Source of the DNA: a phage
Sequence record: PZ295659.1
Reading direction: 5' to 3' (one strand)
Length of the DNA stretch: 64,000 nt
The notes beneath the pieces were generated by a model that searched no databases, was not told the DNA's origin, and was given only the letters and a program-made list of their open reading frames with translations. This document shows positions 4,763 through 59,248 of this stretch, piece after piece. Position 1 is the first letter of the stretch, and every line of letters begins with the position of its first letter. The position numbers and the translations under genes were made by a program.

Positions 4763-5421
4763 TGACCATACTTAATACTAAAGCGGGAGTAATATCCCGC
4801 GAAGCAGATTTTTTAGGATTTAGAAAAAATCCTACTCAAATTGATATTTTAAACAACCAAGGCGTAGGTTCTGTAACTATTTCTCAATTGGCAAAAGGAT
4901 TCTACGATGATAACGTAGAATCTGCAATAAACGATGTTCATAATATTGCTAGAGCAGATGTAGGAACAGTTACAATTAACACCTCAGGTGTATCTCCTGA
5001 AGGAACTTCACAGGTAGATTATTGGTCCTTTAGTGGAAGTGTAACTGACCCTAGTTTGCCCGATGGAAGCCCTGTTATTGTAAAAGTTTACGGACTTCCT
5101 GTTAATGCTACTGTAGGTATGACAGCCGACGAATTTGTTGTACAATTACGTACTACTCTCCGGAATGCGATTTCCGACCAATTGGCCATTGCAGAGTATA
5201 AAGATGACCCTACTGTTGGGACTAAATTACAAATAACATATTTAGATAACCAAAGACACGTACTCCCAACGTATTCCGCTTATGGTATCACGGTTTCTCA
5301 AGAAATAGTGTCTCAGGCTAAGTCCGGGTACGGCACTTGGAATTTACTAGGTGCGCAAACCCTTACTCTTGACAACCATAATTCACCTACAACCTTTTAT
5401 TATTTTGTGAGAACCGCATGA
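4762..5421 (+). CDS. 11: baseplate wedge protein gp11 (short tail fiber attachment)
   Basis: Start moved to the ATG overlapping the gp10 stop (TAATG), giving 219 aa as in T4 gp11; N-terminus [13 protein letters not shown] and C-terminus FVRTA match recalled T4 gp11. Confidence 0.85.
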
Positions 5422-21341: not shown

Positions 21342-21365
21342 TCTTAATTGATTAAATCTTATTTT

Positions 21366-21383
21366 GGGAGACTTCGGTCTCCC
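21366..21383 (+). terminator. GGGAGAC-UUCG-GUCUCCC hairpin terminator after gene 23
   Basis: Perfect 7-bp stem with UUCG tetraloop followed by AUUUUGG; the same 18-mer recurs at 2027-2044 and, reverse-complemented, at 43864-43881 and 59231-59248. Confidence 0.7.
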
Positions 21384-21392
21384 ATTTTGGTT

Positions 21393-41975: not shown

Positions 41976-42424
41976 AAAGAGTCTCTTAATAGGTTTAACA
42001 CATCAATAAATTCAGCTTCGGTTAGTATTGTATCATCTTTTGTTAGGTGGCTGGCCATGCTGTGCTTCAAAACTTTTCCTTTCGAGGCTTGTAATGCATC
42101 ACGAAAGCCCCTGTTTTGGATCGCTGCTTCAAAATATGCATTTGTGTATAATTCTTTCCACGCCGGAGAGTATCTTGAAAACGGAACTCCAAGCCAGAAG
42201 AGGGTCCCACGGTCCTGAGCTCTAGCATAAGCTCGTCCAGCTTGTTGGGCGGCAAGCCCGGATAACCCAAATATACGTTTTTGTTGTTCAACATTTTTCA
42301 CCTTACATCCTTGGAGAAATCCTTCAAGTCCTCCGAATTGAATACCATCCATAACAAAAGGCCATTGAGCAAAGTTACTTAATGCACATGACGGCCATGG
42401 AAAATTGCTTCTGATTTCAATCAT
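41972..42424 (-). CDS. NADAR / YbiA-like (DUF1768) domain protein (30.3-like)
   Basis: LSNFAQWPFVMDG...EGFLQGCK matches the YbiA/NADAR signature FSNFAAWP..VDG...EHYFQA.K as recalled. Confidence 0.55.
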   Translation of the reverse strand: MIEIRSNFPWPSCALSNFAQWPFVMDGIQFGGLEGFLQGCKVKNVEQQKRIFGLSGLAAQQAGRAYARAQDRGTLFWLGVPFSRYSPAWKELYTNAYFEAAIQNRGFRDALQASKGKVLKHSMASHLTKDDTILTEAEFIDVLNLLRDSL

Positions 42425-42615
42425 AGTCTTTTAAGGCTTTTGATAATTTCTAATTCAGAACTCATGCGAACGTCTTCAGTTCCATCGACCCATAGGACGG
42501 TGTAGGCTTCTTTAATTTGAGTATTACCTAATTTAAAAGCAGGTAGAACCTTGGAAATCATTCCAGGAATACCTATACCTTTTAACTGGACTGTTTGTGA
42601 TAAGAATAGTTGCAT
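42421..42615 (-). CDS. hypothetical protein (64 aa)
   Basis: ORF in the coupled 30.x operon (ATGA overlaps on both sides). Confidence 0.4.
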   Translation of the reverse strand: MQLFLSQTVQLKGIGIPGMISKVLPAFKLGNTQIKEAYTVLWVDGTEDVRMSSELEIIKSLKRL

Positions 42616-42902
42616 TAGAACCTCATCTGAAAGCCGTGCGATTTAACATTACCACCATAGATGTCAGAGGTATTGACTTCACGGGCGACACTTGGGTCGA
42701 TATTGATGTCACAGTTGAGCTTAGTGATTGCCAGGGTATCACGTTCATTAACAGTACGGAATTCTACCGGGCATACAACATCAGCATAAGCCTTAATAGA
42801 TTCACGAGTAGGTTGTTTGTCGGCAGGAACATCTTTACCAGCTTTAGAGAAAACAACTTCACAGAAATTTTTACGAGTATCAAAATAAGTGGTCATAAAC
42901 AT
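42615..42902 (-). CDS. hypothetical protein (95 aa)
   Basis: ORF downstream of a UUCG terminator hairpin and an upstream gene; no motif recognised. Confidence 0.45.
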   Translation of the reverse strand: MFMTTYFDTRKNFCEVVFSKAGKDVPADKQPTRESIKAYADVVCPVEFRTVNERDTLAITKLNCDINIDPSVAREVNTSDIYGGNVKSHGFQMRF

Positions 42903-42917
42903 AATATTTTCCTAAAA

Positions 42918-42933
42918 GGAGGCCGAAGCCTCC
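42918..42933 (-). terminator. GGAGGC-UUCG-GCCUCC hairpin
   Basis: On the minus strand the hairpin follows the stop of ORF 42944-43309 and is followed by UUUUAGG. Confidence 0.5.
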
Positions 42934-42943
42934 ATTTTTAAGA

Positions 42944-43309
42944 TTAGATATCAAATTCGTTAAGAACTACATCAAAGATTGCTTCGAGATGTTCAGGTTT
43001 AGCTCGGTTGCTCAGGATGTGACGAATCCAAGTTTTAACCAGAAGTTTACGATTAACACCGTTCCAGCAAGGATGAGTACCTAAATCACGTTGACGGAAA
43101 TCGTCATCTAATGCAATTTTGAAGTTGGAACCTTCCATCGTGATTGAAACCGTGATGCCATTTTCAAATCGCATATAAACGTAATTAGGAGTCATATACT
43201 GCTCAATTTCGCATACTGAACCGTTATTATGCTTCCATAAGCAAATTGTATCGATAGAACCAGCAATACCGTTAGAAACATATTTACGTTCGAAGTTGAT
43301 GTAGTTCAT
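42944..43309 (-). CDS. hypothetical early protein (121 aa)
   Basis: Own early promoter; translation initiation region GGAGAATAAAATGAAC identical to that of the next gene. Confidence 0.5.
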   Translation of the reverse strand: MNYINFERKYVSNGIAGSIDTICLWKHNNGSVCEIEQYMTPNYVYMRFENGITVSITMEGSNFKIALDDDFRQRDLGTHPCWNGVNRKLLVKTWIRHILSNRAKPEHLEAIFDVVLNEFDI

Positions 43310-43350
43310 TTTATTCTCCAGATGTTTAAGTTGTTTGTTGGTACAGGTCT

Positions 43351-43379
43351 ATAATAACAAAACCTGTACCAAAGTAAAC
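43351..43379 (-). promoter_or_regulatory. early promoter (GTTTAC-N17-TATTAT)
   Basis: Minus strand reads GTTTACTTTGGTACAGGTTTTGTTATTAT, upstream of ORF 42944-43309. Confidence 0.5.
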
Positions 43380-43383
43380 ATTT

Positions 43384-43755
43384 TTATTTGATTTTTGTCC
43401 ACTTAGCTGAATCAATAACACCTTTTGCTTTAATCTTCTCGATTAATGACTCTGCACGATTTCTGGCATTTTCATACCATACAACATCTTCAGAGTAACC
43501 TGTTTCTTCATCTTCGTAAGTTTTAGAACGAATACAACCATAAACTGTAGAATTCAGACGGTAAATTTCACCAGTGAAAAAGTTTTCGATTTCGATATGA
43601 TAACAAAAATCGTCTGAAGGGCCATCAGGAGTTGTACAATAAACTACATCACCTTGAATCGAACGAACCATCCACTGTAACTCGTTAACAACTTGAGATT
43701 TATATCCATCGTGGTCACGGCATTTAATTGTAGCATTTAAATTGATAGTGTTCAT
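43384..43755 (-). CDS. hypothetical early protein (123 aa)
   Basis: Own early promoter and the same RBS-start cassette as its neighbour; several Cys residues. Confidence 0.5.
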   Translation of the reverse strand: MNTINLNATIKCRDHDGYKSQVVNELQWMVRSIQGDVVYCTTPDGPSDDFCYHIEIENFFTGEIYRLNSTVYGCIRSKTYEDEETGYSEDVVWYENARNRAESLIEKIKAKGVIDSAKWTKIK

Positions 43756-43797
43756 TTTATTCTCCGGTTGTTTTTATTGATTAGGTGGTACAAGTCT

Positions 43798-43826
43798 ATA
43801 GTAACACATCCTACAGGAGAGTAAAC
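43798..43826 (-). promoter_or_regulatory. early promoter (GTTTAC-N17-TACTAT)
   Basis: Minus strand reads GTTTACTCTCCTGTAGGATGTGTTACTAT, upstream of ORF 43384-43755. Confidence 0.5.
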
Positions 43827-43863
43827 ATCTTTTTTAAACTTTTTCTGCCCTAAACGCACAAAA

Positions 43864-43881
43864 GGGAGACCGAAGTCTCCC
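43864..43881 (-). terminator. GGGAGAC-UUCG-GUCUCCC hairpin terminator
   Basis: Third copy of the identical 18-mer hairpin, 5 nt after the stop of the 59-aa ORF and followed by a U-run on the minus strand. Confidence 0.6.
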
Positions 43882-43886
43882 TAAAA

Positions 43887-44066
43887 TTATGCAACAACCT
43901 TTCCAAAACGAGAAGCATCATCTCGAAGAACTGCACGTGCTCTGCGCATGATCTTCTCAACGGTTTGATTAATACGAGAGTTCGACCCACGCTTGTATCC
44001 AGCGCGTTTAGAGGTACCATCAACTTTCTTTTCTACTGCTTTCTTTGCTTTAGCTTGTTTTGCCAT
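43887..44066 (-). CDS. small basic protein (59 aa), absent from the ORF track
   Basis: Hand-translated MAKQAKAKKAVEKKVDGTSKRAGYKRGSNSRINQTVEKIMRRARAVLRDDASRFGKVVA; terminator hairpin immediately downstream. Confidence 0.45.
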   Translation of the reverse strand: MAKQAKAKKAVEKKVDGTSKRAGYKRGSNSRINQTVEKIMRRARAVLRDDASRFGKVVA

Positions 44067-44285
44067 TATAAATTCTCTTTAAATGAAAATGCAGGACTTA
44101 TTGACATTGCCTGCCCAAGCCCTCAAGGGGAACATAGGTTTTTGGATATTTAACGACAGGATAACCATAAACCCGTCATCATACCGACCACGACTTAGAC
44201 AGATAACCTTTTTCTGACGCGTGATAGTACAAAATACATTCAAGAGGTACACCGTAAAATTGTCGGGGCGGTACTTCTAAAACAT

Positions 44286-44335: not shown

Positions 44336-44584
44336 TTACTTCAGGGTAATAACAAAATGACGAACTGCTTTACGTGCTGCAGAAGCCAGAGGCTTAGCAT
44401 ATTTCAATTCATCTTTCTGAACCAGGATATCGCGAAGATCGGCTTGTGCTGGATTCAGATGTTTGAAATACTGTAAGATTTCAAGAGCTTCGGCTTCAAC
44501 ATCAATAGATGCGCCGTAATTGTCATGGCCATTATTCCATGCATGGCGTTGCAGTTCAAGAGCGTGTTGTAATTGTTTAATCAT
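44336..44584 (-). CDS. rIII: rIII lysis inhibition accessory protein
   Basis: 82 aa, same as T4 RIII; located just downstream of gene 31 on the same strand as in T4. Confidence 0.65.
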   Translation of the reverse strand: MIKQLQHALELQRHAWNNGHDNYGASIDVEAEALEILQYFKHLNPAQADLRDILVQKDELKYAKPLASAARKAVRHFVITLK

Positions 44585-47354: not shown

Positions 47355-47384
47355 ATCATATCACAACTCTACTGTGTTGTAAAC
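47355..47384 (-). promoter_or_regulatory. early promoter (GTTTAC-N18-TATGAT)
   Basis: Minus strand reads GTTTACAACACAGTAGAGTTGTGATATGAT. Confidence 0.5.
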
Positions 47385-57241: not shown

Positions 57242-58424
<1,183 letters not shown>

Positions 58425-58448
58425 TTTATTCTCCTTCACTTTTATTTG

Positions 58449-58472
58449 ATAGGGCTACTATAACATAGCCCT
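58449..58472 (-). terminator. UAGGGCUA-loop-UAGCCCUA hairpin
   Basis: Perfect 8-bp stem after the stop of ORF 58486-58878. Confidence 0.4.
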
Positions 58473-58485
58473 ATTATGTTTTACA

Positions 58486-59230: not shown

Positions 59231-59248
59231 GGGAGACCGAAGTCTCCC
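59231..59248 (-). terminator. gene 32 terminator hairpin GGGAGAC-UUCG-GUCUCCC
   Basis: Fourth copy of the identical 18-mer, 7 nt after the gp32 stop, followed by UUUUGAG on the minus strand. Confidence 0.7.

Follow-up and report, generated by a model that had tools for sequence, protein, structure and literature searches.

Genes 30.8 and 30.7 of an RB69-like phage as probable occupants of separate T4-type early expression cassettes

Two adjacent ORFs of 121 and 123 amino acids, both beginning MN-IN, lie on the minus strand of the 64,000-nucleotide stretch of phage DNA analysed here (the window), and their upstream regions resemble each other. The arrangement raises the question of whether the two genes are products of an old tandem duplication or whether different genes have come to stand behind the same kind of expression cassette. 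The initial annotation, which described the ORFs and their starts correctly, had put forward both possibilities. We consider it likely, with a probability of about 0.8, that the pair is the orthologue of the T4 30.8-30.7 early unit and that it consists of unrelated genes, each behind its own standard T4-type early cassette. Coordinates below refer to the minus strand unless marked otherwise.

Two early genes at a known T4-type locus

The region of ~1.4 kb around both ORFs matches Escherichia phage PHB12 at 98.6% identity and RB69 (genus Mosigvirus) at 93%. Judged by this match, the source of the window is an RB69-like T4-type phage. The RB69 annotation names the matching ORFs 30.8 and 30.7 and has them between rIII/30.9 and 30.6, and the gene order at the locus is the same in T4 and in the window. 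Gene 30.8 (43384..43755, minus strand; 123 aa, MNTIN...) encodes a member of Pfam family Phage_30_8 (PF06019; E 3e-74, 247 bits against a cut-off of 25), and gene 30.7 (42944..43309, minus strand; 121 aa, MNYIN...) encodes a member of Phage_T4_Gp30_7 (PF06919; E 2e-52, 176 bits against a cut-off of 27). Both matches are full length and above the gathering threshold. Our literature search found no functional study of gp30.7 or gp30.8, and a search of NCBIfam and PADLOC returned no family, the single match, to a methyltransferase (E 0.01), being insignificant. No promoter features are annotated at 30.8/30.7 in the T4 GenBank records.

The work of Truncaite et al. from 2006 (Virology 344:378) is said to concern the T4 30.9-30 early gene cluster, with the same genes in the same order. 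For T4-related phages it reportedly described a pair of strong early promoters, together with two RegB sites, upstream of the ligase gene cluster.

Further along the locus, a 64-aa ORF (42421-42615, minus strand) has its best match in T4 gene 30.5 (66% identity; T4 locus 4968-5159), and its RB69 counterpart is annotated 30.4.

The initiation block and the early promoters

The sequence GGAGAATAAAATGAAC occurs exactly twice in the window, at 43750-43765 and 43304-43319 (minus strand), before 30.8 and 30.7 respectively; the chance expectation is 0.1 even with two mismatches permitted. An initiation region identical over 18 nt had been reported here. The block is indeed common to both genes, but the identical run is 16 nt long and the flanking bases differ. 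Its first 11 nt are an exact copy of the T4 consensus for strong sites of the RegB/S1 endoribonuclease, GGAGAAUAAAA (PMC1702504, PMC3014915), and the remainder is the TG of the start codon plus one AAC codon. The 11-mer GGAGAATAAAA, in each case an exact match to the RegB/S1 consensus, makes up the Shine-Dalgarno sequence and spacer of both 30.8 (43755..43765) and 30.7 (43309..43319), and at both genes GGAGAATAAAATG, comprising Shine-Dalgarno sequence and start codon, ends the cassette on its 3' side.

The full 11-mer has three exact copies in the window, each at a translation start. Among ~65 putative translation starts, GGAG is found at 11 and the full 11-mer at those 3, most starts having GAGG or AGGA; the 11-mer is therefore a class-specific signal and no genome-wide ribosome-binding site. 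The initial annotation had allowed that the shared leader might be explained by a consensus ribosome-binding site found throughout the genome, which was right in so far as the block is a known consensus, that of RegB/S1, but wrong as to its distribution. T4 has the identical 11-mer at both genes, and 35 IMG/VR loci retain it at both, some of them from lineages in which protein identity is only ~50%. The identical 16-mer is a functional consensus, composed of RegB/S1 site, start codon and AAC codon, and hence no vestige of gene duplication.

All intergenic GGAG motifs of T4 were tested by Durand et al. 2006 (PMC1702504). The early 30.7 transcript of T4 is a known RegB target that is cut in its Shine-Dalgarno region (PMC9409239, citing Truncaite et al. 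2006), and it served as a RegB substrate 2 min after infection (PMC9409239). The sites in the window, which are known from sequence, resemble such T4 targets in having the exact consensus in the initiation region and a leader predicted to be single-stranded (PMC1702504, PMC3014915); in T4 the orthologous 30.7 site is cleaved (PMC9409239). RB69 has an annotated regB; RegB of the RB69 type is a homologue that has diverged (PMC3014915). By analogy with RB69, the phage of the window would carry regB, whose region lies outside the window, and by analogy with T4 its transcripts would be cut at both the 30.8 and the 30.7 site and would be made early.

Each block is preceded by a predicted early promoter. 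P30.8 (43798..43826) has the -35 box GTTTAC (43821-43826), a 17-nt spacer and the -10 box TACTAT (43798-43803), and P30.7 (43351..43379) has GTTTAC (43374-43379), a spacer of the same length and TATTAT (43351-43356). These are two of the three matches to GTTTAC-N17-TANNAT in 64 kb, against 0.3 expected by chance. The claim that an early promoter precedes each ORF is thus borne out, in the form GTTTAC-N17-TAYTAT. Both also match the consensus TTTACW-N17-TAYWAT of the T4/PST elements known as PeSLs (PMC4122927). T4 early promoters have been described as UP/-35/TGn/-10 promoters (PMC2988021); an A-rich, UP-element-like tract, GCAGAAAAAGTTTAAAAAAGAT, lies at 43827..43848 upstream of the -35 box of P30.8, and the corresponding A-rich tract of P30.7 runs into the final codons of 30.8. 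A generic scan of the window for sigma-70 promoters and terminators gave the same counts as shuffled sequences and failed to pick up P30.8, owing to the poor score of GTTTAC against TTGACA. Promoter activity and +1 positions are those expected from T4. With +1 so placed, the predicted 30.8 leader (43766..43792) is A/C-rich and G-poor, with a minimum free energy of 0 kcal/mol, and 200 of 200 shuffles fold at least equally well. From predicted start to ATG, both leaders give 0 kcal/mol and are predicted to be single-stranded, as a RegB/S1 substrate must be.

The regions upstream of 30.8 and 30.7 align over ~90 nt with 76-78% identity, so that the similarity noticed initially is real and longer than was thought. 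We compared it with that among the nine early-promoter-plus-leader cassettes located on the minus strand of the window, which show pairwise identities of 66-75%. The P30.8/P30.7 pair scores highest in alignment (47, the runner-up reaching 34), largely owing to the unusual length of both leaders, 30-31 nt compared with 15-18 nt in the other cassettes; the two leaders also have in common the motif GAC(C/T)TGTACCA(A/C)C. When the parts are scored separately, the promoters are 71% identical and the leaders 71%, whereas other pairs reach 80% and 76%, respectively. The two promoters are therefore members of a family and no exceptional duplicate, and other, unrelated early genes in the window have equally similar cassettes.

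Four further observations concern the initiation region. The MN-IN codons of the two genes, ATGAACACTATCAAT (43741-43755) and ATGAACTACATCAAC (43295-43309), both on the minus strand, are identical at 11 of 15 nt. The RegB consensus leaves this common start unexplained, and T4 gp30.8 begins MKTIN; the resemblance may reflect chance, a preference in translation initiation or a piece of exchanged cassette. In the P30.8 spacer, TCTCC after the -35 box is complementary to the GGAGA of the gene's own Shine-Dalgarno sequence (43805-43822 and 43757-43766, minus strand). Such TCTCC...GGAGA pairs are also present in the P30.8 regions of the related loci L007, L019, L031 and L036, with TTCCTTTG/CAAAGGAG as the T4 counterpart; folding is predicted to be weak (z -2 to 0). 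The N-terminal extensions MMYTQSTTKLQTEN and MYTQSANWITK called in P0003 and P0012 (30.8 family) and P0048 (30.7 family) arise by translation of ATGTACACTCAATCA, the motif common to the leaders on the downstream side of the -10 box, so their starts are probably mis-called. Finally, rIII (44336-44584, minus strand) lies two genes upstream of both perfect RegB sites, and its protein has been reported to bind S1 and thereby block S1 activation of RegB (PMC9409239).

Taken together with knowledge from T4, this anatomy, namely A-rich tract, GTTTAC-N17-TAYTAT promoter, unstructured A/C-rich leader and GGAGAAUAAAA at the AUG, suggests how both genes would be expressed. Unmodified host RNA polymerase would fire both promoters immediately after infection (PMC2988021, PMC3014915), and GGAG, as Shine-Dalgarno sequence, would direct strong early translation. 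Minutes later RegB, activated by S1 on the 11-mer, would cut GG/AG and inactivate both messages, so that the two genes would be turned off together.

Hairpins of the early unit

A terminator hairpin, AGGGAGAC-UUCG-GUCUCCCU followed by a U-run, lies after gene 30.9 at 43863..43882 (minus strand). In the P30.8 cassette it provides the stem-loop, with 36 nt between its end and the downstream -35 box. A second terminator hairpin, GGAGGC-UUCG-GCCUCC followed by UUUU, is found after 30.7 at 42918..42933 (minus strand). By their predicted structures, the two UUCG terminators bracket the 30.8-30.7 early unit, the latter closing its end. An Rfam search over 42700-44100 gave just sub-threshold noise at the terminator hairpin. 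The hairpin GGGAGAC-TTCG-GTCTCCC occurs four times in the window, at 43863-43882 and 59231-59248 on the minus strand and at 2026-2045 and 21365-21384 on the plus strand; those at 59248 and 43882 both have an early promoter after them and have a 23-nt run, GGGAGACTTCGGTCTCCCTTTTG, in common.

At P30.7 the stem-loop is of a different kind. An 11-bp inverted repeat, UUGGUACAGGU / ACCUGUACCAA (43338..43372, minus strand), holds the -10 box in its loop, with the 5' arm in the promoter spacer and the 3' arm over the predicted start of transcription; formation of the hairpin is therefore restricted to read-through RNA from upstream. Its predicted energy is -20.8 kcal/mol (z -3.1), compared with z +0.4 for the P30.8 region. 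Among relatives, nearly every P30.7 has a hairpin, of -17 to -24 kcal/mol (z -3 to -7), built from at least six different stem sequences, and no comparable hairpin was found in their P30.8 regions. When 11 distinct P30.7 sequences are aligned, pairing extends to 86% of cells, against 26-40% when the partner is slid; compensatory changes affect 6 of 13 pairs, and none of 500 shuffles reached the observed covariation. Mismatches in the stem are G opposite T on the coding strand, a pattern that fits an RNA hairpin of read-through transcripts. The hairpin lacks a U-run, which makes a terminator role doubtful, and we propose that it may act as an attenuator or insulator or protect 3' ends. As a new feature the inverted repeat had to be dropped, since PeSL stem-loops that overlap the -10 box and contain G-T pairs are already described (PMC2839356).

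In seven relatives (L016, L017, L018, L021, L033, L034 and L035) the P30.7 stem, situated ~70 nt ahead of the ATG of 30.7 (locus position 2501), is 11-13 bp long, as in CTCCGTTGTATGT/ACATACAACGGAG, and its 3' arm takes in the GGAG of the Shine-Dalgarno/RegB site. The L034 stem has compensatory changes (CTCCGAGGTTT/AAACCTCGGAG). In such lineages read-through RNA would mask the GGAG site and RNA started at P30.7 would leave it open. The arrangement recalls the masking of the ribosome-binding sites of T4 e, soc, 49 and I-TevI, in which the hairpin likewise forms only in transcripts started upstream and RNA from the proximal promoter lacks the 5' arm (PMC3014915). It differs from them in that the proximal promoter of 30.7 is early rather than middle or late, and in that the hairpin of the window excludes the Shine-Dalgarno sequence, which stems of the L016, L017, L021 and L034 type include. 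We entertain, as a possibility with the odds against it, a combined reading in which the P30.7 stem-loop is a conserved RNA switch that distinguishes transcripts by promoter of origin and the RegB-site block is a preferred point of crossover. Read-through RNA would then be folded, with the 3' arm of the L016/L017/L021/L034 type hiding both Shine-Dalgarno sequence and RegB site, and RNA started at P30.7 would, as in T4, be open, translated and then cut by RegB.

Inverted repeats are also present at the early promoters at 47384, 49508, 52098, 50914 and 37060 (minus strand). Those at 47384 (GTAGAGTT/AACTCTAC) and 49508 (GGAGCA/TGCTCC) span the -10 box, and at the others the repeats lie within the spacer (ACCACAA/TTGTGGT, ACACCA/TGGTGT and ACACAT/ATGTGT). 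The third exact GGAGAATAAAATG of the window precedes an 82-aa ORF, MRLQR..., in an element at 58419-58485 (minus strand). Upstream of this ORF, a 9-bp stem-loop, ATAGGGCTA/TAGCCCTAT, overlaps the -10-like TATAGT and the -35 box is degenerate; in sequence the element looks like a decayed PeSL.

Exchange between cassettes and the descent of the two genes

PeSLs are defined by an AT-rich tract, sigma-70-like boxes and a stem-loop, and end in a Shine-Dalgarno sequence and ATG; they serve as linkers in recombination, and the crossovers, which yield deletions and replacements, have been mapped to the interval from the -10 box to the Shine-Dalgarno/ATG (PMC2839356, PMC4122927). Both cassettes studied here share with the PeSLs of Arbiol et al. 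2010 and Comeau et al. 2014 the AT-rich tract, the TTTACW-N17-TAYWAT promoter and the Shine-Dalgarno sequence and start codon at the 3' end, as well as a stem-loop, which would be the UUCG terminator hairpin upstream of the promoter for P30.8 and the covarying stem-loop across the -10 box for P30.7. Small non-essential ORFs adjoin the cassettes, and the locus shows insertions, deletions and replacements between related genomes, again as in PeSLs. The hairpin of P30.7 differs from published PeSLs in having no U-run. The likeness of P30.8 and P30.7 to PeSLs is one of sequence, and promoter and terminator activity and mini-circles are features of the published PeSLs (PMC2839356). The 30.8/30.7 pair is absent from the text of the 2014 T4/PST PeSL paper (PMC4122927). 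The standard-cassette reading is thus essentially the published PeSL model with a RegB site added, of a known kind and at a known locus.

Because the cassettes are alike, they would also serve as short homology arms, and recombination between them would account for the replacement or deletion of the 30.8 coding sequence in relatives and for leaders homogenized in some lineages. The window and L009 are 98-100% identical up to the 30.8 ATG, 50-75% identical over the 30.8 coding sequence and again 98-100% identical from the P30.7 -35 box onward; by this alignment, their difference is a swap of 30.8 alleles bounded by both cassettes. T4, L007, L012 and L013 show the identical break in similarity at P30.7, and in L012 a promoter and leader of the L007 type are joined to a 30.8 allele of the L009 type. 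Compared with L028, L029 lacks 1015 bp (30.8 and a 170-aa ORF; L028 1486-2500) with 96-98% identity on both sides. Inside the cassettes the two homology blocks share 83 nt, with the junction in the GGAGAATAAA box, so that both endpoints of the deletion sit in the two early cassettes. In other lineages zero, one or two extra ORFs are found between 30.8 and 30.7. The earlier suggestion of repeated cargo capture into a standard expression cassette comes close to the published shuffling of PeSLs (PMC2839356, PMC4122927), and the 30.8 swap and the L029 deletion support it.

The leaders point in the same direction. Within the genomes of L007, L010 and L012, the two 37-nt segments of leader that precede GGAG have 92-97% identity to each other and only 76-81% to the orthologous leaders; the within-genome identity is 49% in T4 and 73% in the window. 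This pattern indicates that exchange between the copies took place in some lineages and not recently in that of the window, whose cassettes are no more alike than other pairs, so exchange between both copies is demonstrated only in relatives. These data weigh on the stronger of the two rival explanations, that the upstream likeness comes only from a common long functional consensus, with no exchange between copies. Such convergence would agree with the 66-75% identity among the nine cassettes of the window, with a promoter and leader that are no outliers in this pair, with the 11-mer being a functional consensus (PMC1702504) and with the restricted alphabet of G-poor unstructured leaders. We nevertheless regard it as improbable, since it fits poorly with leaders that resemble each other more within a genome than they resemble their orthologues, with the L028/L029 junction inside the cassettes and with the exceptional length and common motif of the 30.8 and 30.7 leaders.

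The proteins bear on the question of descent. The initial annotation had reported weak similarity between them; beyond the common MN-IN start we detected none, BLASTP of gp30.8 against gp30.7 giving E=13. Profile-profile alignment with hhalign, using family alignments built from database homologues of each protein, gave a probability of 3.2% and aligned only the first 7 residues. PHROGs, like Pfam, places gp30.8 and gp30.7 in two separate families, here without assigned function. Both AlphaFold2 models (pLDDT 91 for gp30.8 and 78 for gp30.7) have an N-terminal beta-sheet followed by C-terminal helices. In Foldseek searches of BFVD, each model found significant matches in its own family only, with no cross-match among the best 50, and the predicted structures look unrelated, an outcome that the initial annotation had named as counting against common origin. 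For the gp30.8 model Foldseek found no PDB structure with E<0.4, and a PDB sequence search with both family profiles found nothing meaningful.

We also surveyed conservation by tblastn against 50,697 phage records. Each gene is present in one copy per genome, in ~1,000 genomes each, and the two evolve in opposite ways. The gp30.7 sequence is at least 90% identical in 709 records, whereas gp30.8 has 95% identity or more in just 24 and falls below 60% in 821. Relative to T4, gene 30.7 differs by 39 nt and its product by 3 aa, which indicates strong purifying selection, and gp30.8 is 38% identical to its T4 counterpart. Across T4, RB69 and JS98-like phages gp30.7 is almost invariant, and gp30.8 falls into at least four allele classes, with ~100%, 57%, 38% and 37% identity to the protein of the window. 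A 154-aa predicted protein from an ENA metagenome, P0038, contains PF08010 (gp30.3) and PF06919 (gp30.7) domains, which suggests that a deletion fused 30.7 to 30.3 in some metagenomic phage.

Thus, it is very improbable that a single gene was long ago duplicated in tandem, promoter and ribosome-binding site included, and that the coding sequences have since diverged beyond recognition: the adjacency of the genes, their lengths of 123 and 121 aa, MN-IN starts, similar upstream regions and common order of sheet and helices would suit such a duplication, but proteins without detectable homology, in separate families with own-family structural matches and opposite modes of evolution, do not support it, and nor do the equally similar cassettes of unrelated early genes.

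In summary, under the preferred reading of unrelated genes behind standard cassettes, the locus is a clean textbook case of how accessory genes are wired in T4-type phages and carries little weight as a discovery. Its use for annotation is that GGAGAATAAAATG behind GTTTAC-N17-TAYWAT marks immediate-early genes under RegB control. The near-invariant gp30.7 and the hypervariable gp30.8, with its several allele classes, are early proteins that deserve functional study. For the biology of these phages, a strong early promoter combined with a ribosome-binding site that doubles as a nuclease target would give a sharp pulse of expression, and the same standardized cassettes would also be linkers for the swapping of accessory genes.
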